From an uncultured Verrucomicrobiota bacterium (GTDB taxonomy: Bacteria; Verrucomicrobiota; Kiritimatiellia; JAAZAB01): DNA of 64,000 nucleotides. Shown piece by piece: positions 31,924-56,815 of the stretch. The notes beneath the pieces were generated by a model. That model was not told where the DNA came from, did no database searches, and saw only the letters and a program-made list of their open reading frames with translations. Where the stretch lies: positions 1,013 through 65,012 of the forward strand of contig CAZALU010000002.1 of assembly GCA_964486075.1 (NCBI GenBank), read 5' to 3'. The first letter of the stretch is position 1; each line of letters opens with the position of its first letter. The position numbers were made by a program, and so were the translations under genes.

Positions 31924-31925
31924 GT

Positions 31926-33920
31926 CTATCCCAGCAGCACCACAAGTTCCCACTGGTGCATGGGGTGGCCCAAGCGGATGACATCCGCGTCCACTACGAC
32001 TGCCAGGCGTTTCCCCGCCGGCGTAAGATGCCATGCTTCGACAATTGGCGGCATGCCGCGCGGACGTTGAATGCGGAACGTGTCCACCTCATCCGGGCCC
32101 GCGTTCCACACCACTCCGCGCCATGTTCCGCGGTCCTTGAGAAACTGCGGGACAAGCCAGGCGCCGCCATCCACCCGGCCCGTGCCCTCGCCATCGGCGA
32201 GCCAGTCCACGACGCGCTTGAGCTGGGTGGAGCGGTGGATGTCCATCATGGGCACGCTGTCCACGCCGGCGTCCCAGGGCACGACCGCGGTGCGGCCGCC
32301 CAGTTCATTCTTGAAAATGAATGCGCCGTGCCCGACGACTTCTTGTAACGGATTGCGTAAGTCGCTGATTACAGCCGCGCCGGGCATGAGTTCCGCCTGT
32401 AACATCCGACGGGTGTGACTTGCCCCGTTGATGGATATTTGAGCGCCGACCCGCAAGGCAAATTTTGCGTCTCGGCACTCCTCCATCGAATAAAGCCTTT
32501 CTTTCTGAGTCACAAACCGGGCCGATTGCGCGCCGATCCACTTGCCGAGCCCGCGCTCGATCAGGATTGACGCGGCGCCGCCGTCCAACAGCAAGCCCGC
32601 CGCCAGACATTTTTTCAGCGTGGCGTCATCAAAACTCCAGGCGATCGGTCCGGCCAGGGAGTTAACGTGCTGCTGCGGTCGGGCCGAGAAGGCGATGCCT
32701 GCCGTCCCCAGCCAGTTCGACCACCCGCGGCTTGCACATTGCAAGTCAGCCCAGGAACGCCCCTCCTCGAGGCGGATTAAGCGTCCCATGTCTTGTGACC
32801 ACGGGACGCCGACTCCGACGCTTTTCAGGGTCATGGGAAAGTGGTCGGCCAGCCAGTCCATGTTGGGCCGGACCTTTTCCAGGAACGCCGTCCGTTCCGG
32901 CTCGTCGTCGGGCCGGTTTCCCATAAAATCGTAAAGGCTGATATTGAGATTGGTGGATCCGAGGATATGCGCCACGGCCATTTGCGCGAAGGTCTGGCGA
33001 AAGGACTTGTTCCATTTTCCATAGGAAAAGTTTTCGATTTCCGGTCCGCTTTCGAGCACAGAGGGTTGAATTGAGCGATTCTGATCGAGGCTTGCAATGC
33101 CATGCACCAACTGGTGGCCGGTCCAGTCCGAATAACCCCAGAAGGAAGGCCGATGAATCGGGGGCTGTTCGCCGCCAAAAACCTGCCACCATTTTTCCCA
33201 CTGGCGCCCCTCGGCGGCATGGGATTCCATGGCGCTGGACATCAGGCCCATTCGCGTGCCGCCCTCCGCCAGGATCTGCCGACACTCGTCAAGAAACTGG
33301 AGTATCGTTTCCTGCCACATGTCCATCCAGATCGTCCGCCACGGGTGCGGCGCGCCCGGCGCCAGGCAGGCGCGGACGATCTCCTCCCGGCTGGCGCTGG
33401 CGCCCGCCCGTTGGTTGAACTCCGCCACATGCAGCGGGCAGAAGCATCCGCCCCATTGAAGCGTTCCGTGATTATGGTAGCGGATGTCGTCGTCGATCCA
33501 GACCACGCGGAAGCCTTCCGGGGCGTACATGCGAAGGGTTTCAAAATAGTAGGCGCGCCAATTCGGGTCGAGGATGCAGACCACCGCATCGGCCCGAGTC
33601 CCGACCGGGTCCACCATGGTCCGCCAGTCCTGGCCCGGCTTGAGTTTGCGCCCGCGATCACAGTGTAGCATGCTGTGCCAGGGATTCAGGCTCACAGCCA
33701 CGCCTGTCTTCCGCAACGCCTCGCGGTAGGGGCGGGAGCGATCGATCCACTGTTGCAACCGATCGAGGGTGTCATGCCCGTTGTTCTGTTCTTCGGCGAA
33801 GTAGAAGAACATGACTTCGTCCACCGGCGCTTCGCGTACCAGCCGGAGTAGTTGCTCCGTGATCTCCGCCGGGTCCTGGTGCGGACCGAATTGCATGCGC
33901 AGGCTGAAATGGCTTGGCAT
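31926..33920 (-). CDS. large hypothetical protein (664 aa), function unknown; translationally coupled to URO-D-like paralog 2
   Basis: Long ORF with no stop and coding-like composition. No transmembrane segments or signal peptide are evident. No motif could be assigned with confidence; it possibly has a glycoside-hydrolase-like TIM-barrel fold. Confidence 0.55.
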   Translation of the reverse strand: MPSHFSLRMQFGPHQDPAEITEQLLRLVREAPVDEVMFFYFAEEQNNGHDTLDRLQQWIDRSRPYREALRKTGVAVSLNPWHSMLHCDRGRKLKPGQDWRTMVDPVGTRADAVVCILDPNWRAYYFETLRMYAPEGFRVVWIDDDIRYHNHGTLQWGGCFCPLHVAEFNQRAGASASREEIVRACLAPGAPHPWRTIWMDMWQETILQFLDECRQILAEGGTRMGLMSSAMESHAAEGRQWEKWWQVFGGEQPPIHRPSFWGYSDWTGHQLVHGIASLDQNRSIQPSVLESGPEIENFSYGKWNKSFRQTFAQMAVAHILGSTNLNISLYDFMGNRPDDEPERTAFLEKVRPNMDWLADHFPMTLKSVGVGVPWSQDMGRLIRLEEGRSWADLQCASRGWSNWLGTAGIAFSARPQQHVNSLAGPIAWSFDDATLKKCLAAGLLLDGGAASILIERGLGKWIGAQSARFVTQKERLYSMEECRDAKFALRVGAQISINGASHTRRMLQAELMPGAAVISDLRNPLQEVVGHGAFIFKNELGGRTAVVPWDAGVDSVPMMDIHRSTQLKRVVDWLADGEGTGRVDGGAWLVPQFLKDRGTWRGVVWNAGPDEVDTFRIQRPRGMPPIVEAWHLTPAGKRLAVVVDADVIRLGHPMHQWELVVLLG

Positions 33921-34359
33921 TGGAAAGATCCTTGGTGATTAAGCATCTCGCTTTGTGTGGACCAATTTTTAAAAAAAGTGCAGTTCTGTAGCCGCGACCG
34001 TTGGTCACGGTCCTGAGCAACGCAGGCCGACATCATCTGTCGGCTACAGGAAAAGTTGCTCTGCGTTTACGGGGCCTCCAGTATGCGTATGGGATATATT
34101 GACATCTATGTCGTCAGGAATATCAATCGAACGCCAACAATGTATCCGAGCGGCTGGCAGTGTCAATTCGTAAAGAGCATTTGCCAGCCATTTTAATTAT
34201 GGCCTTTAGACCCGAATTACAGAGCATTCACGGGCGAATCCCCAAGGCTTAGGTATGAATCTTCTGTTTTTAGGTTGAATGCCGCTGGCGCATGCTCTAA
34301 AACCATAGCCAGTTTGCATGCGATAGGGCCAATAGCAATATAACGTCAAAGGAATCCAC

Positions 34360-35172
34360 ATGACCACCATTCATCCCACGGCCATCGTGGCCGCCGGTGC
34401 GCAGATCGGGGCCAATGTGACGATCGGACCTTATGCGGTGATTGAGGATAAAGTCTGCATCGGCGCGGACACGGTCCTCGGGCCGCATGTCACCCTGTGC
34501 CGCTTTACGACTATCGGCGAATCCTGCGCCATTCACGCCAATGCCGTCCTGGGTGATTGGCCCCAGGATACGGCCTTCGATCCGAAAGAGGAAAGTTACC
34601 TGCGGGTTGGCGCGCATTGCATGATCCGGGAGGGCGTAACTATGCACCGGGGAACCAAGCCCGGCACCGCCACTGAGGTGGGGGATCACTGTTTCCTCAT
34701 GGTCAACAGCCACCTGGGGCATAATGTCAAGCTGGGCGCATCCGTGATCATCGCCAATGGCGCCTTGCTGGCGGGCTATGTCGAGGTGGGGGACGGTGCC
34801 TTTATCAGTGGCAACTGCCTCCTGCACCAGTTCACCCGGGTGGGACGGTTGGCCATTCTGGCCGGAGGGACCGCGATCAACAAGGATGTGCCGCCCTTCT
34901 GTAAAACAAAAGGACTGGCACCGAATACCGTGCTGGGCTTGAACGTGATCGGTTTGAAGCGCGCCGGGATGGGGCCCGAGGACCGGTTGGCTATCAAGCG
35001 GGCCTTCACGATCCTTTACCGGTCCGGCCTGAACGTTTCCCAGGCCGTGGCACGGATGAAGAAGGAATATCCGTCCGGATTGGCCGGCGAGTTTTGCGCC
35101 TTTATCGAAGCTTCCAAGCGCGGCATCTGCCGCTGTCGCGTTCTGGCCGGCAAAGATGCCGAGGATGAATGA
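34360..35172 (+). CDS. lpxA: acyl-ACP--UDP-N-acetylglucosamine O-acyltransferase
   Basis: 270 aa; left-handed beta-helix hexapeptide repeats throughout (IHPTAIV, IGANVTIGPYAVI, IGADTVLGPHVTL...) and an LpxA C-terminal helical domain. Confidence 0.9.
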   Translation: MTTIHPTAIVAAGAQIGANVTIGPYAVIEDKVCIGADTVLGPHVTLCRFTTIGESCAIHANAVLGDWPQDTAFDPKEESYLRVGAHCMIREGVTMHRGTKPGTATEVGDHCFLMVNSHLGHNVKLGASVIIANGALLAGYVEVGDGAFISGNCLLHQFTRVGRLAILAGGTAINKDVPPFCKTKGLAPNTVLGLNVIGLKRAGMGPEDRLAIKRAFTILYRSGLNVSQAVARMKKEYPSGLAGEFCAFIEASKRGICRCRVLAGKDAEDE

Positions 35173-35237
35173 AGCTGGCCGCGGGGGCTTTGCTATTTAA
35201 GGTTAAGTTCGCTGGCTTATAAATATACCAACGATCC

Positions 35238-36278
35238 ATGATACCGCGCGAACGAGTTTTAGCTGCCGTTGCTCACCGGCGCACCGACCGCGCCCCGGCT
35301 GATTACGGCGCCCACCCGGAGGTGACTGAACGGTTGATGGCCCGCTTGGGCGTCAAGGATTACGAATCCTTGCTTCAGGCCCTGGGCGTGGACATGCGCC
35401 GGATCGGGTTTAGATATGATCAGCCGGAAACTGGTCCGGACAGCGGCGGGTACCTGCGCAATATGTGGGGAGTCCGGTACCGCGACAAGGCACCCGGCGA
35501 TGGTCGCCCAAATATCATTTTTCCCTTTACCGAAGACACCACCGTTGAGGATGTGCATCGCCATGCCTGGCCGGATCCGGCCCGCCTCGATTATTCGGGA
35601 ATCCGGGAACAATGCGTAAAAGCATACGGAACCTATGCCACGTTTGGCGCGCCCTGGAGCCCGTTCTTCCATGAAATTGGCTGGATAATTGGCCAGGAAA
35701 ACTTTTTTATATGGATGGCGTCGCAGCCGGAACTGGTGCAGGCGATCATCGAGCATGTGGTGGATTACGAGGTGGAGGCGACCCGCCGCTTCCTGGAAGC
35801 GGCGGACGGCATGATCGACATCGTGTTTTTCGGTAACGACTTCGGGACCCAGCGGGGTCTTTTCATTTCCCCGGCCATGTGGCGGCAATTTATCCGTTGT
35901 CCGTTAAAACGATATTACGATGTCTCGCACGCCTTCGGATGCCGCGTCATGCAGCATTCCTGCGGCGCGATCCGTGCTATCATTCCCTGGCTCATGGAGG
36001 ACGGAGTGGATATCCTCGACCCCGTTCAATCGGCGGCGGCCGGCATGGATCTGCCGGGGCTGGTCCGGGACTTCGGAGACCGGCTGGCGTTCCACGGCGG
36101 GGTGGATACGCAGGGAGTCCTGCCGTTCGGCACGGTGCGCGAGGTCCGCGGCCAGGTCCGGTCCTATCTTGATCTCACACGCGATCAGGGAGGCTATATT
36201 CTTTGCGGAAGCCAGGACCTGATCGAAGACATCCCACTCGACAACGTTCTGGCCATGTACGACGAAAACACACGCTAA
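35238..36278 (+). CDS. URO-D-like superfamily protein, paralog 3
   Basis: 346 aa; N-terminal ERVLAAVAHRRTDRAPAD signature and a C-terminal HSCGAIRAIIPWLMEDGVDILDPV motif typical of URO-D/MtaA-like enzymes. Confidence 0.7.
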   Translation: MIPRERVLAAVAHRRTDRAPADYGAHPEVTERLMARLGVKDYESLLQALGVDMRRIGFRYDQPETGPDSGGYLRNMWGVRYRDKAPGDGRPNIIFPFTEDTTVEDVHRHAWPDPARLDYSGIREQCVKAYGTYATFGAPWSPFFHEIGWIIGQENFFIWMASQPELVQAIIEHVVDYEVEATRRFLEAADGMIDIVFFGNDFGTQRGLFISPAMWRQFIRCPLKRYYDVSHAFGCRVMQHSCGAIRAIIPWLMEDGVDILDPVQSAAAGMDLPGLVRDFGDRLAFHGGVDTQGVLPFGTVREVRGQVRSYLDLTRDQGGYILCGSQDLIEDIPLDNVLAMYDENTR

Positions 36279-36295
36279 CGGGGGAGGGTTTTTTT

Positions 36296-37555
36296 ATGAC
36301 ATTTTCGAGTCAGGATCGACGGATTCTGCGCGATTTGGCGACGCGGGTCGCGGAGGTTGCCGACCACCCCAGGATGCCCGTGCGGCGGCGGCGCTGGATC
36401 GCGCATAACAGCTTGCGCTCCACATATCCAATGATGCTGGTGTTTCCGGAAGGATCGTGGGGGGAACTTCTGCCGGAGACCTGCTTGCAATGCGTCGATC
36501 CCCGGGCGCGGGAAATTGAATATGCGTTTCGCATACGCCTTTATACCTTCGAACATTTTCAGGACGATACGGTGATCGAAAAGGAATGGGTTGTTCAACG
36601 ACGGATCCGCTACACGGGGTGGGGGCTGGAGCCCCGCCGCGTGCCGAGCCCGGCAGTCCGGGGCGCTTGGCATTTCGATCCCGTCATTCGCGTTCCGGCC
36701 GACCTCAAAAAACTAAAATACCCAGAAGTCATCCTGGACGAAGCGGAATCGCGCCGCGATCTGATGTCCGTGCAGGATCTTTTTGGGGATATTTTGGCTG
36801 TACGCAGCGTGGGCCTTCAGCATTTGTCCTACCATTTGATGGCTGAATACACGGCCCTGCGGGGATTGGAAGAGGTCATGCTGGACATGTATTCCGAACC
36901 TGGCATGCTGCATGACGCCATGGCGTTCCTGGAGGAAGGTCACCGGCGCTTGTTGCGGCAGTATATCGAACTGGGATTGCTCTCGTTCAACAACAATAAC
37001 GCCTACCAGAATTCGGGCGGCAACGGCTATACCGACGAATTGCCACTTCCAGACGCCGATCCGGACCGTGTTCGGCCTTGCGATATGTGGGCCAGTGCTG
37101 AAGCCCAGGAAATGGCCCAGGTCAGTCCGGAGCATCACGCCGAATTCATACTGGCCTATGAAAAACGTTTGCTGGCGCCTTTCGGACTTACCGGCTATGG
37201 CTGTTGCGAGGATCTAACACGGAAACTGGACATCGTTTTTGGCATTCCCCGCATAAGGCGGATATCTATTTCCCCTTGGTCGGATGTGGCCCGTTGCGCG
37301 GCCAAACTAAAAGGTGGCTATATCTTTTCCTGGAAGCCGAATCCGGCGCACCTGGTCGGTGAGTTCAATGCTCAAGCCGTCCGGTCCTATATCCGGCAAA
37401 CGCTGGATGCGACCCGTGCCTGTGGATCTGTCCTGGAAATGGTTCTCAAGGACACGCACACCTGCGAACAACATCCGGAGCGGTTCGATCACTGGACCCG
37501 CATCGGGCGCGAATTGATCCAGGAAATGTGGGGCGAACTGTCGGCTGGCGGGTAA
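36296..37555 (+). CDS. URO-D-like superfamily protein, paralog 4 (divergent N-terminus)
   Basis: The C-terminal GYGCCEDLTRKLDIVFGIPRIRRISISPWSD...GGYIFSWKPNP parallels the HxCG...GVDIL...G.dP pattern of URO-D-like proteins. The start was chosen at MTFSSQ, which follows a GGAGGG Shine-Dalgarno sequence; the ORF-track extension to 36203 overlaps paralog 3. Confidence 0.55.
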   Translation: MTFSSQDRRILRDLATRVAEVADHPRMPVRRRRWIAHNSLRSTYPMMLVFPEGSWGELLPETCLQCVDPRAREIEYAFRIRLYTFEHFQDDTVIEKEWVVQRRIRYTGWGLEPRRVPSPAVRGAWHFDPVIRVPADLKKLKYPEVILDEAESRRDLMSVQDLFGDILAVRSVGLQHLSYHLMAEYTALRGLEEVMLDMYSEPGMLHDAMAFLEEGHRRLLRQYIELGLLSFNNNNAYQNSGGNGYTDELPLPDADPDRVRPCDMWASAEAQEMAQVSPEHHAEFILAYEKRLLAPFGLTGYGCCEDLTRKLDIVFGIPRIRRISISPWSDVARCAAKLKGGYIFSWKPNPAHLVGEFNAQAVRSYIRQTLDATRACGSVLEMVLKDTHTCEQHPERFDHWTRIGRELIQEMWGELSAGG

Positions 37556-37598
37556 CGCCCGCCCGCTGGACTGCGGGACAGGGCTCGGATTTTCGTCA

Positions 37599-37627
37599 TT
37601 GACCTGTTTTGCCTGTCCAGCTATGCT
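37599..37627 (+). promoter_or_regulatory. candidate sigma70 promoter TTGACC-N17-TATGCT
   Basis: Pattern match ~35 nt upstream of the MMFITHF start of the PpiD-like gene. Confidence 0.3.
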
Positions 37628-37661
37628 CTTGCCCCGTAACTTTCTTGAAAGGTATCGAGCC

Positions 37662-39380
37662 ATGATGTTTATAACGCATTTTAATAAACTGATCCGAAAT
37701 AAGATCCTGTGGACTATTTTTGCGGCCATCATCATATGTTCCTTTGTGCTGTGGACAACCCAGACCGGCGGGTCCCAATCGGAGGCGTCGCTCAATCGCA
37801 CCGGCAAACTCGATGGAAAAATTGTGCCGGAACAGGAATTTCAATCCGCTTACTTCAATTCTATGCTCTCCATTTCGCTCATGTTCGGGAGGCCGATAAA
37901 GATCACTGCGCGGGTCAACGAGGAGTTGCGTGGCATGGCTTGGCGGCGGCTGGTGTCGTTGCGGGCGGCCCAGTCCATGGCTATATCCGTTACCCCTGAT
38001 GAAGTGGTCGCTGCGATCCAGCAACAGCCTTATTTTTTGGATAAGGGTCAATTCCAGCAGGACCGTTACAACATGTTCGTGGGCCGGTTTCTCGCCAGCC
38101 TCCAGACGAGCGAGGCGCAGTTTGAGGAATATATACGCCAGGAATTGATTTTGAATAAAACCAAGCATCTCCTGGCCCAGGGCGCCTGGGTGGCGCCGTT
38201 GGAGGTGGAGCAGGTGTTCGACCAGTTGTACGACGCTTTTGTCGTCAGCTATGTCTTCCTGGCGCAGGACGATGTCGCGCCCTTGGTCAAAGTCAGCGAG
38301 GATCAGGCCCAGGCCTACTTCGAAGGCCACCGGGAATCCTTTAAGATTCCGGAAAAAATGCGCGTAAAATGGGTCGCCTTTCCCATCGAGCTTTTTCTTG
38401 ATGAAGGCAATTTGGATGAGCAAACCCTGCGTTTTTATTATGACGAATACATTGAGGATTTCACCGTGCGTGACTCCAACGACCAGTTGCTCGCCAAACC
38501 TTTCGAGGTTGTGGAGGATGATCTGCGGTCAAAGATGGCTTGGGAGGCCGCGCTGGCCCAGGCGGGGGACCGGGCCTCGGATTTTGAGGTGGCACTCGCC
38601 CCGGACCGGCAGGGCAAGGCTCCGAGTTTCGAGGATGCAGCCCGAGCCGGCGGTTTATGCGTGGCGACATCGTCCTATTTTGCCGTCTCTCAGACGATTC
38701 CCGGGCTGGAGGACAACTTGGAATTCAGCAAGGCGGCTTTCGAACTGCGCCAAACTCCGGACGATTATTTCAGCCGCGTGCTTACGGGATCAAACGCTTA
38801 TTATCTCCTGGCGCTCGACAACCGGGTCGATGCCCGCATACCAGAATATGCAGAAGTTCGCAGCGCTGTTATCGAGGCGGCACAAGCGCAAGCCATAACT
38901 GAAAAATTGGAGCAGTTGGCCCGACTCTATTACGAGCTGGCGCTTGACGGCGTGGAGCAAGGTCTGTCTTTTACGCAAAGTTTGCAAGGAACCGGGTTGG
39001 AAGTAGAAACCACGGAACCGTTCTCGGTCAAGGAAGGATTCGAAAATACAGAGCTGGAATATTTCAATGCGCTGGTCAAGGAGGTGTTGACGCATAACAG
39101 CGGAGAGATGACCAAGCTTATTCCGGTCAAGAACGGCTATGTTTTTGGCCGCGTAGATTCGCGCCAGCCTGCCAGCCGCACCCTGTTGGAGTCGGCCCGC
39201 GCCGACCTGGTCCGCTATATCCGGCGCAGTCGGGAAGGCCTGGTTTTCAACGAATGGGAGGGATACCTGCTTGCTTCCGCCAAGTTTGAGGATCTTTTGC
39301 CCAAGCAGAGCGCTGCGTCGGAATTTGCGGACGATGATGCATTCCCCGAAGATGAGTTCCCGGACGGGGAAGATGAATAA
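37662..39380 (+). CDS. periplasmic chaperone of the SurA/PpiD family (N-terminal membrane anchor plus SurA-N-like domain)
   Basis: N-terminal TM helix ILWTIFAAIIICSFVLW followed by a long helical SurA-N-like region. No clear parvulin PPIase motif was recognised. The start was moved to MMFITHF (37662). Confidence 0.6.
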   Translation: MMFITHFNKLIRNKILWTIFAAIIICSFVLWTTQTGGSQSEASLNRTGKLDGKIVPEQEFQSAYFNSMLSISLMFGRPIKITARVNEELRGMAWRRLVSLRAAQSMAISVTPDEVVAAIQQQPYFLDKGQFQQDRYNMFVGRFLASLQTSEAQFEEYIRQELILNKTKHLLAQGAWVAPLEVEQVFDQLYDAFVVSYVFLAQDDVAPLVKVSEDQAQAYFEGHRESFKIPEKMRVKWVAFPIELFLDEGNLDEQTLRFYYDEYIEDFTVRDSNDQLLAKPFEVVEDDLRSKMAWEAALAQAGDRASDFEVALAPDRQGKAPSFEDAARAGGLCVATSSYFAVSQTIPGLEDNLEFSKAAFELRQTPDDYFSRVLTGSNAYYLLALDNRVDARIPEYAEVRSAVIEAAQAQAITEKLEQLARLYYELALDGVEQGLSFTQSLQGTGLEVETTEPFSVKEGFENTELEYFNALVKEVLTHNSGEMTKLIPVKNGYVFGRVDSRQPASRTLLESARADLVRYIRRSREGLVFNEWEGYLLASAKFEDLLPKQSAASEFADDDAFPEDEFPDGEDE

Positions 39381-39382
39381 TG

Positions 39383-40108
39383 CTAGCCGCTAGAAGCGGC
39401 GCCCCCGCCGCTTTCTTCTCTTGGCAAGTTCCTGAACTTCCTGATCATCCTGAAAAAACGGATTGTGTCGCGCAGCGGGCGGATCTTACTGATTTCATCC
39501 CGGTAAATGACTGTGATGGGCACTGAGCCCATGCGGACCCCGCGTGCCGCCAGGTGCAGGAGAATTTCCGACTCGGCCGCATATCCCGAGGATACCGGTG
39601 CTTCCGATGGGAGCACAGCGCAGCGATATAGACGGAACCCGCATTGTGTGTCGGGGACAGATTGCTTCATTTCCCGGCTGAGGTATCCGCTCATGAAACG
39701 GTTAGTCCAGCGCCGGATGAGTGGCATACTTCGCGGATTGCCCATGCGATTACCAACGAGGACCGGGAGCCCACTGCCGGCATAAATATCCAGAAAACGT
39801 GGAATATCAGAAGGCGCGTGCTGGCCATCGGCGTCCATGGTTAAGAGATGATCGAAACCATGTTCCCTGGCGTATTTAAAGCCTGTGAACAGGGCCACCC
39901 CTTTGCCGAGGTTGTGAGCGTGGCGCAGGACAATGGCGCCCGCCGCCGCCGCTTCCTGCGCCGTTTGATCCGGCGAGCCGTCGTCGATGACGATCACCGG
40001 ACGGATTATGCTGAGCACACTGCGGATCACTTCCCCGATCCGGCCCTGCTCCAGGTAGGCCGGCATGATCACGCAACCGCTTGTTGTTGATGTGTCAGAT
40101 CGATTCAT
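39383..40108 (-). CDS. family 2 glycosyltransferase (Dpm1/polyprenyl-phosphate sugar synthase-like)
   Basis: VIMPAYLEQGRIGEV...VIDDGSPDQT...TMDADGQH are GT2 DxD and associated motifs. The start was placed at MNRSDTS (40108); the long ORF-track N-terminal extension is Cys/Arg-rich junk that overlaps the next gene. Confidence 0.75.
   Translation of the reverse strand: MNRSDTSTTSGCVIMPAYLEQGRIGEVIRSVLSIIRPVIVIDDGSPDQTAQEAAAAGAIVLRHAHNLGKGVALFTGFKYAREHGFDHLLTMDADGQHAPSDIPRFLDIYAGSGLPVLVGNRMGNPRSMPLIRRWTNRFMSGYLSREMKQSVPDTQCGFRLYRCAVLPSEAPVSSGYAAESEILLHLAARGVRMGSVPITVIYRDEISKIRPLRDTIRFFRMIRKFRNLPREESGGGAASSG
39393..39422 (+). terminator. Rho-independent terminator (GAAGCGGCG-CCCC-CGCCGCTT + TCTTCTCTT)
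   Basis: A 9-10-bp GC-rich stem and a U-rich tail begin 13 nt after the stop of the PpiD-like gene. It shares an 18-mer (gctagaagcggcgccccc) with a degenerate copy at 63832. Confidence 0.55.
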
Positions 40109-40976
40109 GGTTCCTGTTGGGTTGCCAGAATTCGTCGAACATAAACCATTGCAGCGGGTGACGGGCGATTTCCATTTCCATTGCATCCCGAATCTGACGG
40201 CGAAGGTCAAGCACCGAGGTTTTGCCTGAGGGCACGATCGGCCGGTGCATACGGAGCAGGAAGGTGTCATCCGGCTGGCGCACCAGGAATGTCGGGACAA
40301 TTGGCGCACCGGTCTTGGCCGCGATGCGCGCGGGCCCGCTGGGCAAGCGCGCCGGAAGTCCGAAAAAAAGGAGCGGTTCATCCTGGTGAGTCGTGTAATC
40401 GCGGTCGGCCAGCATGGCTACGTATTCCCGATTCTTCAAGGCCTTGAGCACTCCGCGGGCGGCCTGGCCGAAGGGGATCAGGCGCAGGCCGCGCCTGGTG
40501 CGGTGCTTCTCGAACAGGTCGTTGACCTTGCCCGCGCGCTGGGGATAGAAAACAGCGCACAGGCGGCGGCCCAGCGCGCTGAGCACAGCCCCGCCCAGTT
40601 CCCAGTTGCCGAGGTGGGCTGTAACCAGGATTACGCCCCGTTCCAGGTGTTCGGCTTCCTCCAGGTAATCCAAGTGTTCCAGGCTCACCAGCCGGTTCAC
40701 TGCCTTGAGGTCGAAGCGCGAGAATTTAAAAAAGTCCACCAGGTATTTGCCGAAGTTCTGGAAGTTCTTGCGGGCCATCTGGCGCAGAGTGTCTTCCGAT
40801 GCCTGGACGCCTTGTGCTGCCAGGATCTGGCGGAAGTTTGACATCACTGCCTGCCGGCCCCTTTGATCCGTTGCGAAAAAACGGTCGGCTATGCGCAGTC
40901 CAACCCAGTAGGCGAAACGACGCGGCAGACCACGGCTAATGAGTTGCGCCAGCTGGTATGATATGTAGGGGGTCAT
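40095..40976 (-). CDS. lipid A biosynthesis late (Kdo-lipid IVA) acyltransferase family protein (LpxL/HtrB-like)
   Basis: 293 aa; an N-terminal hydrophobic anchor and the catalytic HLGNWE (HX4E) motif of the LpxL/LABLAT family. Confidence 0.75.
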   Translation of the reverse strand: MTPYISYQLAQLISRGLPRRFAYWVGLRIADRFFATDQRGRQAVMSNFRQILAAQGVQASEDTLRQMARKNFQNFGKYLVDFFKFSRFDLKAVNRLVSLEHLDYLEEAEHLERGVILVTAHLGNWELGGAVLSALGRRLCAVFYPQRAGKVNDLFEKHRTRRGLRLIPFGQAARGVLKALKNREYVAMLADRDYTTHQDEPLLFFGLPARLPSGPARIAAKTGAPIVPTFLVRQPDDTFLLRMHRPIVPSGKTSVLDLRRQIRDAMEMEIARHPLQWFMFDEFWQPNRNHESI

Positions 40977-40982
40977 GGGAGA

Positions 40983-41037
40983 ATGGTTAATGGTTGATGG
41001 TTAATGGTTGATGGCTGATGGTTAATGGTTGATGATG
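40983..41037. repeat. heptamer tandem repeat ATGGTTR x ~7.5 (ATGGTTA ATGGTTG ATGGTTA ATGGTTG ATGGCTG ATGGTTA ATGGTTG ATGATG)
   Basis: Read directly. It lies immediately upstream of the LpxL-like start codon and covers the stop codon of the small secreted-protein ORF. Confidence 0.8.
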
Positions 41038-41273
41038 TCCCGGAATGGTTCAGCTTTGTGCCGTCGAAAAGGCGTGAGCAGTTCGGTGTTGGCAATCCAG
41101 AGGGCAGGGTAGGGGGTCTGGGCAGGGATTTGGTTTGGGTTCGCGTTGGAAAGTTGATCGAGCGCCGCCTTGTCAAAGGCGACGAATCCCGCCTGGATCT
41201 CAACATTATAGCTTGCTTGCGCATGAATTGACGAAGTCATCAGGGCCAAAAGGCCAATAAGCCACTTGTTCAT
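41022..41273 (-). CDS. small secreted hypothetical protein (83 aa)
   Basis: Signal peptide MNKWLIGLLALMTSSIHAQA. A GGAGAAG ribosome-binding site lies upstream. The C-terminus runs into the heptamer repeat. Confidence 0.4.
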   Translation of the reverse strand: MNKWLIGLLALMTSSIHAQASYNVEIQAGFVAFDKAALDQLSNANPNQIPAQTPYPALWIANTELLTPFRRHKAEPFRDIINH

Positions 41274-41295
41274 ATTCTTCTCCTCGACAAATACT

Positions 41296-41326
41296 CCTGA
41301 ACCCTGAACCCCGAACCCTGAAAACC
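41296..41326. repeat. heptamer tandem repeat CCTGAAC CCTGAAC CCCGAAC CCTGAAA
   Basis: Read directly. It lies between the lipA stop and the start of the small secreted-protein gene. It shares a 19-mer with 14256-14274 in the opposite orientation. Confidence 0.8.
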
Positions 41327-41333
41327 AGCGTTG

Positions 41334-42218
41334 TTACGCTTGCCGGAACAACTCCTCCGCCTTGTAGGACGAACGTACCAGCGGACCGGCGGCCACGGCC
41401 GTAAAGCCCATGGATAGTGCCCTTTCCTTGTACTCGGCAAATCGCTCCGGCGCAACGAACCGGTCAACGGGGAGGTGGCGTCGCGACGGTGCCAGGTATT
41501 GACCGAGCGTCAGGATCTCGCACCCTGCCGCTCGTAAATCCTCCAGGGCTTGGAACAATTCGGCGTCGGTTTCGCCCAGGCCGACCATCAGGCCGGATTT
41601 AATTGCGGGATGCGAGTGGTTCCGCGAGGCTTCCTGGAGCACGCAGAGCGAGCGCTGGTAATCGGCCTGGGGCCGGGCGTTCGGCTGGAGCCGTTCGACG
41701 GTTTCCAGGTTATGGTTGAACACGTCTGGCCTGGCCTCAAGCACGGTGGTAACGGATTGCGCATTCCCTTGAAAATCGGGAGTCAACACTTCTACGGTGA
41801 TACCGGTTCCGTGCGAAGCTCCGATGCGAGGCTGGGTTTTGATCCGGTTGATGGTGGCGGCGAATGCGCCGGCGCCGCCGTCCGGCAGATCGTCCCGGGT
41901 GACGCTGGTGACGACGACATGCCGCATGTCCAAGTGAGCCGCCAGTTCAGCCACCCGGCGCGGCTCGGCGGGGTCGGGAGGCGATGGAATGCCTGTCTCA
42001 ACCGCGCAGAATCGGCATTGGCGCGTGCAGAGGTTGCCAAGAATCATAAACGTGACCGTGCCGTGCTGAAAACATTCCTGGCGGTTGGGGCAGCGCGCAC
42101 TTTGGCAGACCGTGTTTAGACCGGCGCTCTCGATCACGTCATTAATTTCGGCCAGGCGTCCGTCGCTTTGCAGCCGGATTCGAATCCATGGAGGTAGTCG
42201 CTTCATGATTGCATGCAT
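41334..42218 (-). CDS. lipA: lipoyl synthase
   Basis: CPNRQECF... and CTRQCRFC radical-SAM and auxiliary cluster motifs; 294 aa. Confidence 0.9.
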   Translation of the reverse strand: MHAIMKRLPPWIRIRLQSDGRLAEINDVIESAGLNTVCQSARCPNRQECFQHGTVTFMILGNLCTRQCRFCAVETGIPSPPDPAEPRRVAELAAHLDMRHVVVTSVTRDDLPDGGAGAFAATINRIKTQPRIGASHGTGITVEVLTPDFQGNAQSVTTVLEARPDVFNHNLETVERLQPNARPQADYQRSLCVLQEASRNHSHPAIKSGLMVGLGETDAELFQALEDLRAAGCEILTLGQYLAPSRRHLPVDRFVAPERFAEYKERALSMGFTAVAAGPLVRSSYKAEELFRQA

Positions 42219-42254
42219 AGGATTTCAAGATCGTAGAAGCGACGCCGTTTCACT

Positions 42255-42668
42255 TCAGCTTGGCCCTAACAGCGGCGGGACCGTTGCTTCCACCTTATCA
42301 GCCATGGCAAAATTAATGCTTTGTTCAGCTGCTGGGTCCAGTTTGAATTGGGCCTGGCAGGGGGATGTTAATTCTTCACGTCTCCAAACAGTTGGAAAAT
42401 CGCGGCACTGCCGGGGCTTGACGGGCTGAATCCGGCACGTATTCCCTTCCAGAAACACACAGGCGCCGTCCCCGGCCTCGGTGAGGATGAGGCCGGTACG
42501 GGAAGGATGCAGACGCGTGAAGCGATCCACGAACGAAACCGGTGTAAGATCCAGGAAACGAGCGATGGTTTCCAGTTCTTCCGGCAGAATCCGGACGAAG
42601 CCTGGCCAGCGGCAACAATTTCCACAGCGTGTGCATAGAGGTTGGGATGTTGCAGAATTGTTGATCAT
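42255..42668 (-). CDS. YkgJ family Cys-cluster protein (UPF0153, putative Fe-S/zinc-binding)
   Basis: CTRCGNCCRW...CVFLEGNTCRIQPVKPRQCRDFP matches the CxxCxxCC...C...C pattern of the YkgJ/flagellin N-methylase-like family. Confidence 0.7.
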   Translation of the reverse strand: MINNSATSQPLCTRCGNCCRWPGFVRILPEELETIARFLDLTPVSFVDRFTRLHPSRTGLILTEAGDGACVFLEGNTCRIQPVKPRQCRDFPTVWRREELTSPCQAQFKLDPAAEQSINFAMADKVEATVPPLLGPS

Positions 42669-42742
42669 GGTTGATTCTTCAAAATATTTGCCATACAGTA
42701 TGTCAGGTTAGTGACGTTTATTCAATCTGAACTTAGGAGGTC

Positions 42743-44034
42743 ATGTTGAAAACAAAAACGACGCCAGGCGATACGCGCTGGTTTGTGAGGGACCGGTTCG
42801 GCATGTTTATTCACTGGGGTCTTTATGCCCTGCCGGCGCGGCACGAGTGGATCAAGCAGGTGGAACAGATTCCGGACGAGAAGTATGCGACCTATTTTCG
42901 GCATTTCGATCCGGATCTGTATGATCCCGAGCTCTGGGCCCGGGCGGCCGCCGGGGCCGGCATGAATATTTCGTGGTCACCACCAAGCACCACGAGGGCT
43001 TCTGCCTGTGGGATTCGAAGCTGACCGATTACAAGGCGCCCAACACCCCGGCCGGGCGCGATCTGCTGCGCCCCATGGTCAATGCGTTCCGAAAACAGGA
43101 TATGCGTGTGGGCTTCTATCACTCCCTGATCGACTGGCATCACCCCGAGTTCACGATCGACGATATGCATGCTCTGCGGAATCACCCGGACCGCGCCAAG
43201 CTGAACCGCAGCCGGCGCCAGGAAATGTACGTGCGATACCTGCACGGGCAGGTCCGCGAGCTGTTGACCCGCTTCGGCAAGATCGACATCATGTGGTTTG
43301 ATTTCAGCTATCCGACCCGCGCCGGCCTGAAGGATTGGGTGGGCAAGGGCCGCGCCGAGTGGCAGAGCGAGAAGCTCTATAAACTGGTCCGCAAGCTGGC
43401 CCCGCACATCATTCTCGACGACCGGCTGGATCTCGATGAGGGCTGGGACATCAAAACGCCGGAACAGTATCAGCCGCGTGAATGGCCGATGGTGAATGGT
43501 CAACCCGTGGTCTGGGAGGCCTGCCAGACGTTTTCCGGCTCGTGGGGCTATCACCGGGATGAAGCCAGCTGGAAGAGCATCGATCAGCTCGTCCAGATGC
43601 TGGTCGACACGGTCAGCAAGGGCGGCAATCTGCTGCTGAATGTCGGACCCACCGGGCGTGGCGAGTTCGACCGGCGGGCGCTGGACCGGCTGGCGGGCAT
43701 GGGCGAGTGGATGAAACGCCACAGCCGCTCGATCTACGGCTGTACCCAGGCGCCAGCGGAATTCGTGACGCCGCGGGATTGCCGTTTGACGTACAATCCG
43801 GATAAGCGCCGGCTCTACGTGCATGTTTTTGCCTGGCCGTTTATGCACCTGCACCTGGACGGCTTGGCCGGCAAGGTGGCCTATGCGCAATTGTTGAACG
43901 ACGCTTCGGAAGTGCTCGCCAGCGAACCCGCCGAGCATCAGAAATCCTCGCAGGACAAGGGCACCATGGTCTTGACTCTACCGGTCCGCAAACCGGACGT
44001 AACCGTTCCCGTAATCGAGTTGTTCCTAAAATAA
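42743..44034 (+). pseudogene. alpha-L-fucosidase (GH29) interrupted by a single-base frameshift
   Basis: ORF 42743-43024 ends ...FGMFIHWGLYA...AAAGAGM, and ORF 42973-44034 begins (K)YFVVTTKHHEGFCLWDSK. Together they reconstitute the GH29 signature ...AGAKY-VVLTTKHHDGFxLWDS. The sequence catgaAtattt at ~42964-42967 lacks one A relative to the expected atgAAAtat. Confidence 0.75.
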
Positions 44035-44332
44035 ATCCAAGCGCGCCGCGCTGTGAACGGCACCAAGACCATAAGCGGTATTGGTTGTAGCCCCGCTCTA
44101 TGAGCGGCCGGCAGCGGAGAAGATGCGTTCCCCCGTGGATAATCTTTTGTAGCCCTCCGGCACTTGCCGGAGTGGTATTGGTCTGGGGAAGCGAGGTCCG
44201 ACATCACCGATGTCAGCTACAGTAAGAGTCGCACTCCGATTTGGATCGCTGGACCTAAATTACCAGGGAACACAAAGCAAATCTGCATGCCGAAAGCAGA
44301 CCCGCCCTCGGTGGAAATAGAGGAGACCATAA

Positions 44333-44728: not shown

Positions 44729-47356
44729 GTGCGAACGTTTTTAATCAGAAAATCTGATCGCATGATACCACCGGCGCGTCCATCCCAGCCCTTGCGGCGG
44801 CCGTTAATAGGCCTGGCCCTGGCCTTTGTCGCCGGGACCTGGGGCGCTGTGATGATCGGTAATCTTCCCCCGGCCGCGGCGGGCGCGCTTTCCGCCGGCT
44901 TGCTGATTTTTGCCTTTTTATGCCAGGCGGGGGTTAGTCTTTATCGACGCCGCCAGTCGATGGGTTCAATCGGTGTGTCTGCCTTTGCTGTTCCATCCCG
45001 TCTATTGCCCGGGCTGATCACGCTCTGCCTTTACCTTGCGGTGGGCGCTGGCGCCTGGTGCGTAGCCGGCTTGAAACTGGATGATCCCTTCCCGAACGCG
45101 CTCGCGGCCTTGCTGGAAAAACCGCGCGAGAGCGTGGAAGTGGAAGGCGTGGTCGCCGCCGAGCCGGTTGTAAGACGGCTGGCGGGCGGTGTTCGTGTGT
45201 TGGTTGATTTCCCCTTGCGTTTGGAGGCAATCCGGCGCGTAAACCCTTGGCAGAAGGCGCGGGGTACTATCCAGATTACCTGGCCGGTTCTGGCGGGCGG
45301 GGCTTATCCGCGCTACGGCGAACGCTGGCGGCTGGCAGGCGTGCTCACGGATAATGCCCGCTTCCCGGAGCCGGAATTATTTGCAGACACCACTCCCCAA
45401 TCAAAGATCGGGAATCTAATATCTAAAATCGGCTACCCCGTGACCAACGCCTCCCGTCCGGTTCTGGACTGGATCAAGCGGCGCTATACATTTTGGGCCG
45501 ATCCGGCTGCCGCGGCATGTCTTGTACCGAGCCAGGGATCCTCCCTGGTTGCGGCCTGTTTCCAGATGCGCCGGAAATGCGCCGCTACCCTGGCGTTGGG
45601 TATTGAGCATCGTCCTGAAGTCACGGGCCTGTTGCAGGCCCTGCTCCTGGGCTACCGCCGGGAACTGCCGCAGAAACCGCGCGGCGATTTTAGCCTGACC
45701 GGCACCTATCATATTTTCGCGATTTCCGGACAGCACGTGGCAATTCTGGCGTTGTTCATTGTCGTGCTTTTGCAATCCTATCGTATCTCGCGCCTAAGAT
45801 GGTTCTGGTACGTCGCTCCCATTCTGGCGGCGTTTACGGTGGCAACTGGTATGAGTGCCAGCGCCGTGCGCGGTTGTTTAATGGCCCTTTTGTGTTTCCT
45901 GGGACCGTTGCTCGGGCGGAAACCGGATATTCCCTCGGCCATAGCCTTGGCGGCGTTGATTATCATGGGCGTGGACCCGTTTCAACTTTTCGATTATGGT
46001 TTCTTGCTCTCGTTTGTGGCGGTGACCGGATTGATTGTCATGTGTCCCCCGCTGATCGAGCGCTTGACGCCGATCTTGGCTGCTGACCCCTTGCGTCTCC
46101 AGCCGGAGCCGAGGCTTGTCCGTTTAGGACGGCAATTCATCCGGGTTGTTATTTTTCTTTTCATCACGTCCTGGGCGGCCTGGTTGGCGACCACCCCTTT
46201 GATTGCGCGCTGGTTCAACCTGGTGTCGCCCATAGCATTGCTGGCGAATTTGATTGTGATCCCGGTGGCGACTCTGGTGCTGCTGGCGAGTTGTCTTGCC
46301 ATTGTTTGCGGCCTGGTACTGCCGGCTTTGGCTGAAGTGTTTAATTTCGCCAATGTGGCGCTGGTTTCCCTGTTGCTATGGATCACGGATTTAATGGCGC
46401 GAGTTCCCTATGGACACGCCTATGTCAGATCCCCGCCGCTGTGGAGCCTGGCGGTATGGTACGGCACTCTCTTGGCCTGGGTTGCCTGGCGTCAACGAAT
46501 TGTTTTTGGCATACGGCGCATCTGGCTGGCCGGTCCGATCATCCTATTCCTGGTGCTTGGCGCCGGCCGGCTTGGGTCATGGAAGACCGCGACCATGGAC
46601 CTGCTGAACTATGGAGATCAACCAGTCTGTTTTATAAACATCCCCGGCGCGGGCGATTGGCTGATTGATACCGGCGGACGATACCAGGCGCGCAAACTTA
46701 TCCGCCATCTGCGCCGCCAGGGAGTGGACCGGCTGCAGGCGGTGATCCTGACCGGAGCGGACAGTTCCCGCGCCGGCGGGTTGCCGGAGCTGCTGCAGGC
46801 CATGCCGATCCGGGAGCTATGGCTTCCGCCCGGCGCGGAAAAATCGCGAGCTTTGCGGGGCATGCTCGAAATCGCGCGCAACAGAGGCGTGCGCCTGCGC
46901 TACTGGACGGAAAACAGTCTCTCAACTGCTCCGCAATCGGTCCACATTAACATCGAACCCGGAATGTTTTATCCGACTTTGCCAGTCGCTCTGGAGTTCC
47001 ATTTATCCGGCGTCGCACAACACGCTGCGCCGACCTGGCTTCTAAGCCGGGGAACTGTCGCGCTGCTTTTCATTGATGGCGGCCCGGATTCATGCGCGGC
47101 TGCAATCCGTGATGCGCATCCGGACTTCAGTCCTAAGGTCCTGATCGAAAACCGTATGGCGGATGAGCATGAGCACAAGCGGTGGGGCGCGGAGGATGGG
47201 CGTCCGGCATGGCGGATCATCTGCGTCCGGGATTTGTGCGCAGGTGGTGATTCTGATTCTCAGCCCTGTGATCGGGATCTTCGCCTTGTACCGGGGCAGG
47301 GGATGCGTATCCGGCTGGATCGAAGCCTGGTGCGCATGGAGCGTTTGGCTCTTTGA
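44729..47356 (+). CDS. comEC: DNA internalization competence protein ComEC/Rec2 with C-terminal metallo-beta-lactamase domain
   Basis: 875 aa, polytopic. The competence-domain motif LTGTYHIFAISGQHVAIL is present, and the C-terminal ~250 aa is MBL-like. Confidence 0.85.
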   Translation: MRTFLIRKSDRMIPPARPSQPLRRPLIGLALAFVAGTWGAVMIGNLPPAAAGALSAGLLIFAFLCQAGVSLYRRRQSMGSIGVSAFAVPSRLLPGLITLCLYLAVGAGAWCVAGLKLDDPFPNALAALLEKPRESVEVEGVVAAEPVVRRLAGGVRVLVDFPLRLEAIRRVNPWQKARGTIQITWPVLAGGAYPRYGERWRLAGVLTDNARFPEPELFADTTPQSKIGNLISKIGYPVTNASRPVLDWIKRRYTFWADPAAAACLVPSQGSSLVAACFQMRRKCAATLALGIEHRPEVTGLLQALLLGYRRELPQKPRGDFSLTGTYHIFAISGQHVAILALFIVVLLQSYRISRLRWFWYVAPILAAFTVATGMSASAVRGCLMALLCFLGPLLGRKPDIPSAIALAALIIMGVDPFQLFDYGFLLSFVAVTGLIVMCPPLIERLTPILAADPLRLQPEPRLVRLGRQFIRVVIFLFITSWAAWLATTPLIARWFNLVSPIALLANLIVIPVATLVLLASCLAIVCGLVLPALAEVFNFANVALVSLLLWITDLMARVPYGHAYVRSPPLWSLAVWYGTLLAWVAWRQRIVFGIRRIWLAGPIILFLVLGAGRLGSWKTATMDLLNYGDQPVCFINIPGAGDWLIDTGGRYQARKLIRHLRRQGVDRLQAVILTGADSSRAGGLPELLQAMPIRELWLPPGAEKSRALRGMLEIARNRGVRLRYWTENSLSTAPQSVHINIEPGMFYPTLPVALEFHLSGVAQHAAPTWLLSRGTVALLFIDGGPDSCAAAIRDAHPDFSPKVLIENRMADEHEHKRWGAEDGRPAWRIICVRDLCAGGDSDSQPCDRDLRLVPGQGMRIRLDRSLVRMERLAL

Positions 47357-48947: not shown

Positions 48948-49423
48948 ATGGATACCAGCGGCCGAAGCTATAAGCCGGATTCTGTGCTCCGCTGCCGGGA
49001 CAATCGCGTCCCGGATTGGACGACGGCCATTTGTCTTGCTGTTGCCGTCGCAAGGACGGGAACAGACTTATTGCGATCAACCCGAAACTGCCCCCGATAT
49101 TACATCGGGGTTAAGGCGGGCCGCCCGTGACAGTTTCATATTTGATCTTGCTCCAGGTGGGGTTTGCCTTGCCCCCGACATTGCTGTCGAGGCGGTGGTC
49201 TCTTACACCGCCATTTCACCCTTACCCCGCTCACCTCTGCAGAGAGGCCCGCAGGGCGGTATTTTTTCTGTGGCACTTTCCGTATCCCGCGCATTACCGC
49301 GGGATCCCCCGGCATTACGCCGGGGCACCCTGCCCTTTGGAGTCCGGACTTTCCTCCCCCCCATCCCGGACTAAAACCACCCGGGAGGCGGAGCGGCCGT
49401 CCACTGCAACCGCCGATATCCAA
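48948..49423 (-). ncRNA. rnpB: RNase P RNA, bacterial type A
   Basis: The minus-strand sequence contains the universally conserved P4 elements GGAGGAAAGUCCGGACUCCAAAGGGCAGGGUGC at the 5' side and CACAGAAUCCGGCUUAUAG near the 3' end. The interior has AAGGGUGAAAUGGCGGUGUAAGAGACCACC (P10/11/12 region). The P1 stem pairs 5' GGAUAUCGGCGGUUG with 3' CUUCGGCCGCUGGUAUCC. Overall length is ~475 nt. Confidence 0.85.
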
Positions 49424-50742: not shown

Positions 50743-52240
50743 TTATTTCCACCCCTTACACGTTACCAGCAAGGTCTTCACCTCAAAGGGACGGAAGGTC
50801 AGCTTAATCTTGCCGCCCGCAAGTTGCACCTTGTTGCCCGTCGGGTTTTCCAGAAAATTAACTTCCCGGGCCGCGCTGATGCCTTGGCCTAGTTCTATAA
50901 TTGCCGCGCACGACCGGGCCTCTGGCAGGAACAGGCGCAGCACAATGCCGGTCGAATGCTCGGCGCGGCGCATGGCTGTGCAGAGAACCGAAGCGCTCCC
51001 TCGAATTACCAGCTGGGGCGCTTGGCTCAGCCGCGCACCGTCCGTAAGAACCGGCACCATGGAACGATTGAACGCCATGCCTTTGCGCACCAAGCTGGCG
51101 TTGGATGCTTTCGTTCCATGCGGTTCGAACGCGAACCGTATGACGTGTTTCCCGTTGTCCGTCTCCGGGTCGGGGGCATACGGATTTCGCAATAGCGTGA
51201 TGCGCAGCCGGGGACCCAGGGCATCCGTTCCATATTTCGAATCGTTGTATAAAGTGAATCCGAATTCCTGCCCCGATACGTCCGCCCATTTCTGAGTCGG
51301 CATTTCCAGGCCATTGGCCGGGATCTCGTCCACCGAGAACGGACCTTCGGGCCTCGTCAATGACTTGGAATACGTTTAACGCCAGCTCGGCGTGTGTGCT
51401 TGGCCCGTGAGTGAGCGGACGCGGGGCACCGTAGGCGACAAGTTCACGCCGTGAGCGTTTTGTCCCAGTAGGAGCCGATGGCGCCCGACGGCGTATGGAG
51501 CTTGACGATGGCTTGCGGGCTCTCCACCTCGAAGTAATCGCCCTTTTCCGTTACGGCGATCCTCGGGAACTCCCGCGCTTGGGGCAGTTCGAACAGGATA
51601 CGATAGGTCCTTTGCGAGAAGGCCGGAACCTTTGTTGCTATGAAGACAAAATTTTTATCCAATCTTTGGACCGGGATGAGTTGTCCATCCGAGTTCTGCA
51701 AGGCAACGGTATGGCGTGGCAGAGCGGCGCGCATCGGCTCGGTTCGCTCGAACCCAAGCGGGTTAAGCAAGGTCAAGTAATGCCCTTTGCGATCGGCCTT
51801 AACCAGCACGGCAACGGACGCGCTGATCACCCGGGCGGCCGTTGCCCGTGACGACTCGGCCCGCCGGTGCGCGTCGCTGTAACTGTCATGAACGGCGGCG
51901 CCATCGAAATGTCGTGAAATTGATTGAACAGCACTGGAATCCACACAGCGTGGAGTGCCGCGGTCCTATCCAGACCGGCTAATGCCGAGAGCGATTCTGC
52001 GGCCAGCAGATCGGCTTCGCACCTCCGATTGTCGCGTTTCAAGGCGGCGTGGGTGGTAAAACATCCTTCAAAATGGAGTAACATTGTCCCTTGGCTCAGG
52101 GTAAGTGTCGGGCGCCTAAAGAATCTTGGCTTTGCGGCCAAGGTGTTTAGTTGACCAGTCGGCGGCATACAACATGTGGCGGGCAATGGATTCACCATCG
52201 GCCATATTGAGATCGCCCTCGACCCAGGTGCCGGCCGCAT
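50743..52240 (-). pseudogene. alpha-mannosidase (GH38) remnant: 5'-truncated and multiply frameshifted
   Basis: Three minus-strand ORF fragments carry GH38 regions. Fragment 51827-52240 has the NQFHD motif (WIPVLFNQFHDI). Fragments 51444-51944 and 50743-51360 have the central and C-terminal domains (LYNDSKYGTDALGPRLRITLLRNPYAPDPETDNGKHVIRF). Frame changes occur between fragments. The ~300-aa catalytic N-terminal region is missing because the intact GH4 gene starts at 52633. Confidence 0.65.
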
Positions 52241-52632
52241 TTTCCCAGCGGCCTTCCTTGACCCTCGACTGGATATTGCGCAAGATAGCTGGGTCTAACT
52301 TTCTGGCCGTCGTATAATCGGAACCTGGCCCATGGTAAAGGTCAACTCAGGATAATCGTCCATCATCTTGGTCACTGATTTTTTCTAAGGGCCTTGCCCG
52401 TTTTTTTCGAGCTTGTGCCAGGTCTGCTTGAACTCGAAATCGAGCGGCCGGCGCAGAGGGTTGGCAGGGTAACGCCACTCCAGCGCCAGACGCCCGTTGA
52501 GTTCGGTGGATTGCTTGTCCAGTTCAGCCAGTAATTTTGGTCAGTCATGCCCCCCCCCCACCCTCTTCGGCAGTGCGCTGGATAAGGCTGTCGATATTCG
52601 ATTTTTTACATCCACTCCGGCGATGGAAAGAT

Positions 52633-55706: not shown

Positions 55707-55714
55707 AAATGCCT

Positions 55715-56812
55715 CTAGCGTCTTTTCGAATCCCGTCCCTGTAGTTTATTGAGAATTGCTTCGGGGTCCTGGGCCTTGGTGATCAGATCCTCGTAATTGA
55801 TTATTCCGGCTTCGTAGAGCACCAGCAGGTGTGCATCCAGGGTGAGCATGCCCCACTTGGCGCCGGTTTGAATATCCGACGTGATGCGAAATGTTTTGTT
55901 GTCGCGAATCAAGGCTTGAATGGACGGTGTGCTGATCATAATCTCAAATGCCGCCACCCGCCCCGGCTTGTCCTTGCGGATGATCAGCAGTTGTGAGATG
56001 ACCGCGACGATGCTGGATGCCAGCTGGGTGCGAATCTGTTCCTGCTGGGTGGTTGGAAAGGCATCCACAATCCGGTCCACGGTGCGCGCGGCGCCGGTCG
56101 TATGCAGCGTGGCAAAGACCAAGTGCCCGGTTTCCGCAGCGGAGATGGCTGCTTCCATCGTCGGCAAATCGCGCATTTCGCCGACCATTATCACATCCGG
56201 ATCCTGGCGCAGGGCGCGGATCAGGGCTTCTTTGAAGCCGGGCACGTCGACCCCGATCTCGCGCTGGGTGACGATCGATTTTTTGTGAGAGTGGTAATAT
56301 TCAATGGGATCCTCGATGGTGATAATATGGCAATCCCGTTCTATATTGATCAGGTCGATCATGCTGGCCAGGGTGCTGGTTTTGCCGGAGCCGGTCGGAC
56401 CGGTAATGAGAATCAGGCCCCGCGGACGGAACAGCATGTCTTTCACCTGCGAGGGTAACCCGATCTCGTCCAAGGTCATCAACTTATTGGGAATCTGCCG
56501 GAGGACCATGCCGCAATTACCCTTGGATTTCAGTACGCTGACACGGAAACGGGCCGCGTTGCCGAAGCTGAATCCGAAATCTATCCCGCCGACTTCACGG
56601 ACCTTTTGCTGGTAAGCGTCAGAGGTGATGCTCTTCATTAGTCGGTCGGTATCTTCGGGGGTCAGTGCCGGCAGATCCACGGATTGCAGATGGCCGTGGA
56701 GCCTGAGCATGGGCGGCAAACCCACGTTGATATGTAAATCCGATGCGCCTTCGTCCACGACGACCTGCAGCAGATCGCTCATGCTTACCTTCGTGTTTGC
56801 GCTTTCCGTCAT
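55715..56812 (-). CDS. pilT: twitching-motility (pilus retraction) ATPase PilT
   Basis: 365 aa; [16 protein letters not shown] Walker [24 protein letters not shown]-like ([23 protein letters not shown]) and a C-terminal PilT motif. Confidence 0.9.
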
Positions 56813-56815
56813 GCG

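Follow-up and report, generated by a model that had tools for sequence, protein, structure and literature searches.

A one-base frameshift in a GH29 alpha-L-fucosidase gene of a Kiritimatiellia-like bacterium is not reproduced at that site in a second assembly

The DNA analysed, a stretch of 64,000 nucleotides called the window below, carries two overlapping plus-strand open reading frames that together spell an alpha-L-fucosidase of glycoside hydrolase family 29 (GH29). Enzymes of this family are retaining exo-fucosidases, made of a (beta/alpha)8 barrel and a C-terminal beta-sandwich domain. The features of the locus are the following:

42255..42668, minus strand: CxxCxxCC-domain protein (PF03692), divergent upstream neighbour, used as a synteny marker
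42735..42740, plus strand: Shine-Dalgarno-like AGGAGG, read directly in the sequence, with the fucosidase ATG 2 nt downstream
42743..44034, plus strand: GH29 alpha-L-fucosidase gene, complete with 430 codons after restoring one A (Pfam, PDB, homologues, synteny)
42743-43024, plus strand: ORF1, 93 aa, ATG start
42743..42964, plus strand: N-terminal part of the gene, residues 1-74, window frame 2 (tblastn HSP, 100% identity)
42965..42966, plus strand: the lesion, AA for AAA/AAG (Lys75), a 1-nt deletion (alignment with orthologues and with a Logan contig)
42967..44034, plus strand: C-terminal part of the gene, residues 76-430, window frame 1 (tblastn HSP over residues 75-430)
42973-44034, plus strand: ORF2, 353 aa from a GTG that is a mechanical start, the frame being already open from 42925
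44762..47356, plus strand: ComEC-like competence protein (PF03772, PF13567), downstream neighbour, used as a synteny marker

Beyond 42964, ORF1 continues out of frame to a TGA at 43022-43024. The frames of ORF1 and ORF2 overlap by 100 nt and the downstream one is -1 relative to the upstream one, so that the -1 shift described in the initial annotation was correct. In a Pfam search, PF01120 (Alpha_L_fucos) matched ORF1 over profile positions 28-108 (E 4.8e-14) and ORF2 over positions 112-343 (E 8.3e-64). The repaired protein, which is the translation obtained with one A inserted after 42966, matched the same profile without a break (positions 28-343 of 345, E 1.1e-87, 295.1 bits compared with a cut-off of 25.2). 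It was also aligned over residues 11-397 with PDB entry 6gn6 (E 3e-111), again unbroken across the lesion, and 54 PDB fucosidase sequences matched it at E <= 1e-3. The PF01120 and 6gn6 matches bear out the proposal that a GH29 enzyme of about 430 aa lies over the two ORFs. GC3 was 0.67 for ORF1, compared with 0.80 for the frame of ORF2. No Shine-Dalgarno motif was found ahead of the ORF2 GTG at 42973, where the upstream sequence is GGCATGAATATTTC. An antisense ORF at 42892-43938 (348 aa) was rejected as a gene: no family matched it, and its composition is that of a shadow ORF. Judged by homology, a Kiritimatiellia-like bacterium carries here an ordinary gene for a GH29 enzyme, a predicted alpha-L-fucosidase.

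Homology places the break between ATG (42962-42964) and TAT (42967-42969), where AA alone is left. In a DNA alignment, two of the three nearest orthologues read ATG AAA TAT at this site and the third ATG AAG TAC, compared with ATG AA- TAT in the window. The site lies at the border of VVTTKHHEGF, the family's most conserved motif, and in the Lys75 column 117 of 120 aligned sequences have K and 3 have R (the repaired window protein counted in). The homology and the orthologue DNA alignment thus agree with the conserved motif, the exact break position and the change from AAA to AA that had been read from the window at the outset.

The split was seen in no relative. Of the best 120 homologues in the database, 119 have the full length (420-478 aa, 73-87% identity); the sole short entry, P0004, corresponds to ORF2 of the window, which was deposited on its own as a 353-aa protein. 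When the repaired protein was used in tblastn, all 83 listed related loci gave a single HSP across residues 65-90 and the window alone was split, at residue 74/75. A degenerate DNA pattern specific for the deletion had no match in 241 million metagenome records and none in the 83 loci; the corresponding pattern for the intact version matched 9 of these loci. An exact pattern that tolerates either allele, GCCGGCATGAAN{0,1}TATTTCGTGGTCACCACCAAGCAC, had no match in JGI metagenome contigs, and the species is therefore absent from that collection. In a scan of genome contigs, the best identity was 73-76% among the matches listed.

The neighbourhood of the gene is shared with its orthologues: a CxxCxxCC gene likewise lies upstream at loci L001 and L002, and ComEC likewise lies downstream at L003 and L001. 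The best named relatives of the window's GatB are from metagenome-assembled genomes (MAGs) called 'Kiritimatiellae/Kiritimatiellia bacterium', at 66-72% identity, and the lineage is therefore a poorly sampled, Kiritimatiellia-like one. More widely, the GH29 homologues at loci L004-L083 (55-76% identity among the matches listed) come from MAGs whose labels include Limnochordia, Planctomycetaceae, Victivallales and Armatimonadota as well as Anaerolineae, Acidobacteriota, Bacteroidota and Streptomyces. This many phyla suggests a wide horizontal spread of the GH29 subfamily.

No additional lesion was seen in the GH29 gene, and its start codon and AGGAGG motif are undamaged. In the 120-sequence alignment, the repaired protein agrees with the family at all 149 near-invariant columns (mean number of departures in the family 0.44, maximum 4), and by its predicted sequence it keeps HWG, KHH, WFD and other family-invariant motifs. 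The dN/dS ratio (Nei-Gojobori) was 0.11-0.15 for comparisons of the window with the three orthologues nearest to it, and 0.13-0.17 among intact orthologues. Because there is no decay, and because constraint and the ribosome-binding site are intact, the break in the gene is, as far as these comparisons tell, either extremely recent or not real.

The window was compared with a second assembly, the Logan contigs of run SRR8925755, which may or may not be the source run of the window contig. Four of these contigs were traced via the window proteins GatB (P0125), LipA, QueF and ComEC, the exact ComEC product of the window being found on L087. They cover the following parts of the window:

33475-42996: Logan contig L085, SRR8925755
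44078-47448: Logan contig L087, SRR8925755
49327-53233: Logan contig L086, SRR8925755
54507-61132: Logan contig L084, SRR8925755

Over 23,427 compared bases there were 0 mismatches and 1 gap, and this gap is the missing A. At the site, L085 reads ggcatgAAAtatttc, with codons GGC ATG AAA TAT TTC GTG GTC ACC ACC AAG CAC CAC GAG, and the truncated product translated from it is ...AGAGMKYFVVTTKHHE; at 9,522 other bases L085 does not differ from the window. L085 ends 30 nt beyond the A-run, within the most conserved motif of the family. Logan graphs presumably use k = 31, which would place the end of L085 about k-1 from the A-run. This end suggests a branch in the graph, due either to an allele bubble or to k-mers shared with a co-occurring orthologue. 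For the gene body (42997-44077) no Logan contig was recovered: a search with the C-terminal 355-aa protein gave no near-identical Logan product, and exact look-ups of ORF1, of ORF2 (with V or M first) and of a guessed 355-aa partial product had no match. In the Logan-covered stretches, 852 homopolymers of 3 and 318 of at least 4 agree between the two assemblies (233 of 4, 61 of 5, 17 of 6, 6 of 7 and 1 of 10), and a general homopolymer error process is therefore excluded.

The rest of the window was screened for split genes, using stop-to-stop ORFs, a GC3 filter and then Pfam on about 45 ORFs. By Pfam these are ordinary full-length genes, and a single frameshift splits none of them. Among them are housekeeping genes (PNPase, IF-2, NusA, TruB, GatA/GatB, pyruvate kinase, MiaA, LspA, DksA, LipA, ComEC) and carbohydrate-active genes (GH4, GH130, a SASA/CBM9 esterase). 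Overlapping ORF pairs that had been considered as split genes proved to be distinct genes, each complete (DksA/LspA/MiaA, GT2/lipid A acyltransferase, the three T2SSE ATPases, GatA/GatB and others). The exception to this picture is a set of GH38 remnants:

~50743-52301, minus strand: heavily decayed GH38 alpha-mannosidase pseudogene (Pfam fragments in three frames, large internal deletions)

The fragments match GH38N (57-123/270), Alpha-mann_mid (3-61/96), GH38C (157-206/206) and GH38C2 and make up about 1.6 kb in total; an intact GH38 gene is expected to be roughly 3 kb. Since the remnants are identical base for base in Logan contig L086, they are taken to be a genuine old pseudogene, unlike the GH29 lesion.

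Several other features of the window were recorded. Three consecutive genes for secretion/pilus ATPases of the T2SSE family (53997-58546, minus strand) lie between GatB and the GH4 glycosidase; two encode proteins of about 580 aa with MshEN domains and one a PilT-like protein of about 366 aa. Three paralogous URO-D ORFs (28429-29574, minus strand; 30916-32088, minus strand; 35223-36275, plus strand) match the C-terminal half of the profile only, their N-terminal 130-200 residues being matchless, and they may be methyltransferase-like proteins of the URO-D family. A class A RNase P RNA (RF00010, 216.7 bits, full-length model) is found at 48955-49412 on the minus strand, and RnpA (20612-21031) and YidD (20281-20604), both on the minus strand, were recognised from sequence. 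Homopolymers of 10 bases are present at 10502-10511 (G10, in the IF-2 gene region), at 16242-16251 (A10, just upstream of a solute-binding-protein gene that ends at 16213) and at 52550-52559 (C10, between the GH38 remnant and GH4), the last of which was confirmed by Logan contig L086. At 63886-63914, in non-coding DNA just beyond the apparent end of a minus-strand ORF, G19 is directly followed by T10; this tract resembles a mis-join or a poly-G artefact of sequencing, and casts doubt on the local assembly quality.

Could the two ORFs be expressed as they stand? In the Sulfolobus solfataricus alpha-fucosidase gene fucA1 (SSO11867/SSO3060), ORFs of 81 and 426 aa are read by -1 frameshifting on A-AAA-AAT, a slippery site with rare codons and a putative stem-loop on its flanks, and the frameshifting was experimentally proven (PMC1616953). 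A similar programmed event in the window would yield the full-length enzyme by recoding; the precedent is in the same enzyme family (PMC1616953), and the geometry fits, with a downstream ORF in the -1 frame and an overlap of 100 nt. Nevertheless, we regard programmed frameshifting as extremely improbable here. At the site defined by homology the sequence is G-AAT-ATT, on which -1 re-pairing is impossible for either tRNA. No X_XXY_YYZ heptamer is present anywhere in the zero frame of ORF1, no A/T run of at least 4 was found in the 100-nt overlap (its only run of at least 4 is GGGG at 42953), and the fold of the downstream 93 nt is not unusual (MFE -30.5 kcal/mol, compared with a shuffle mean of -29.3 +/- 3.2, z = -0.39). 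With an A-run of 2-3 nt, the initial suggestion of a slippage-prone site is not supported, and transcriptional slippage was rejected in view of the same short run. The split is moreover unconserved (83/83 loci contiguous, 119 homologues full length), the same genome bears an unsplit version in L085, and the flank of the break differs (…K-N/K-FGPVTDFGYK in fucA1, …AGAGM-K-YFVVTTKHH here). We give as little credence to a split enzyme, in which ORF1 and ORF2 would be translated separately and would assemble to an active fucosidase: both pieces are open and keep the conserved residues, but the GTG of ORF2 lacks a Shine-Dalgarno motif, the break interrupts the one catalytic domain, PF01120 (between profile positions 108 and 112), the arrangement is found in no relative, and the N-terminal piece of the Sulfolobus enzyme is not an independent domain and bears essential catalytic residues (PMC1616953). 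It is equally hard to believe that the AA allele is real and gives a full-length fucosidase by non-canonical -1 recoding at G-AAT-ATT-T; if true, this would be a bacterial counterpart of fucA1, and the AAA and AA alleles would amount to constitutive and attenuated expression in the population. A recent pseudogene fixed in the organism, with the Logan AAA coming from a different co-occurring strain, is unlikely, though not to that extreme. The window does carry the deletion, and ORF2 was deposited as the separate 353-aa P0004. However, another strain should differ elsewhere, yet the 23,426 other bases are identical; the lesion is not reproduced in L085, and the gene has neither further lesions nor an excess of substitutions or other sign of relaxed constraint. 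We conclude that the frameshift is very probably neither programmed nor fixed in the organism, and that an intact GH29 gene is present in the sampled population.

The AA itself may then be an error or a young allele. We put at about one chance in two a local assembly or consensus error private to the window assembly. In such an error, the AAA codon of Lys75 would have been undercalled by one base to AA at a point where the metagenomic assembly graph branches, at the edge of VVTTKHHEGF, a stretch that co-occurring orthologues may share at the k-mer level. The sole difference in the compared bases is the missing A where L085 reads AAA, L085 stops 30 nt past the A-run in the conserved motif, the gene is without decay and has its start and AGGAGG intact, no single-frameshift split was found by Pfam among the other ORFs, about 45 in number, and the tract at 63886-63914 indicates that the window does contain what looks like a sequencing or assembly artefact. 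On the other hand, de Bruijn assemblers spell only k-mers present in reads, so that AA was probably in some reads, as a real variant would be no less than an error; the end of L085 could also reflect a bubble between real alleles or a third (AAG) variant; and the genuine GH38 pseudogene indicates that this genome does shed glycoside hydrolases. The chief alternative would be a real and very recent null allele, a 1-nt deletion in AAA coexisting with the intact allele and picked by the MAG assembler, which might belong to part of the population or to the population of another sample, and which we hold as possible at somewhat below even chances. The AA path in a de Bruijn assembly must presumably have had read support, L085 breaks off at a distance of at most about k, which is what a nearby branch of the graph would produce, and the GH38 remnants at about 50.7-52.3 kb, the same in L086, are an instance of glycoside hydrolase loss. 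Kiritimatiellia-like genomes typically hold many redundant GH29 copies; with this redundancy, losing one copy would be cheap. Against a null allele, there is no second lesion and no relaxed constraint, so that it would be extremely young; the sole independent sequence compared shows AAA; and the k-mer at which L085 stops is common to the AA and AAA versions, so that the exact break point is not predicted by the AA allele alone. That AA arose by error, and is not a real allele of a minority or a strain, is our inference. The sequencing or assembly indel envisaged in the initial annotation is favoured, the AAA that spoke for it being seen in a second assembly (L085), at the level of contigs and not of reads. 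The very recent inactivation also envisaged there survives in the weaker form of a non-fixed allele, and since L085 reads AAA, disruption of the gene is not established as a property of the organism.

The case has little biological weight: GH29 genes are abundant in PVC-group bacteria, and when one copy has a single-base indel, the cause is an error or else the routine turnover of genes. For annotation, P0004 (353 aa) is a truncated call, and the gene of the organism is best treated as encoding the 430-aa enzyme. More generally, apparent frameshifts in MAGs can be judged from another, independent assembly of a public run in place of read inspection.

The lesion was compared with known systems. 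Like fucA1, the window has a GH29 gene that opens with a short N-terminal ORF and goes on in the -1 frame with a long C-terminal one, and in neither case is a piece expected to be active alone. In contrast, fucA1 has a slippery heptamer, rare codons, a putative stem-loop and experimental proof, and the window is without such signals; the peptide at the break differs, and the window genome also has an unsplit allele. The lesion also resembles assembly or consensus errors of MAGs and frameshift pseudogenes: these likewise involve a single-base indel in a short homopolymer of a conserved gene that a second assembly does not reproduce, and no feature distinguishes the window case from them. The alpha-L-fucosidase of PDB 6gn6 shares GMKY..TTKHH.GFCL with the repaired protein; it belongs to another phylum, is more distantly related and has no frameshift. 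We take 6gn6 to be the Paenibacillus thiaminolyticus GH29 enzyme, the PDB record saying 'Alpha-L-fucosidase' alone. The GH29 enzymes of uncultured bacteria of the PVC/Armatimonadota type include P0001 (87% identity), P0002 (86%) and P0003 (82%, from GCA_964418925.1). They share with the window gene a length of 423-437 aa, the motif AAGAGMKYFV(V/I)TTKHHEGFCLWDS and the CxxCxxCC and ComEC neighbours; their genes are uninterrupted, whereas the window gene differs from them by one A of the Lys75 codon.
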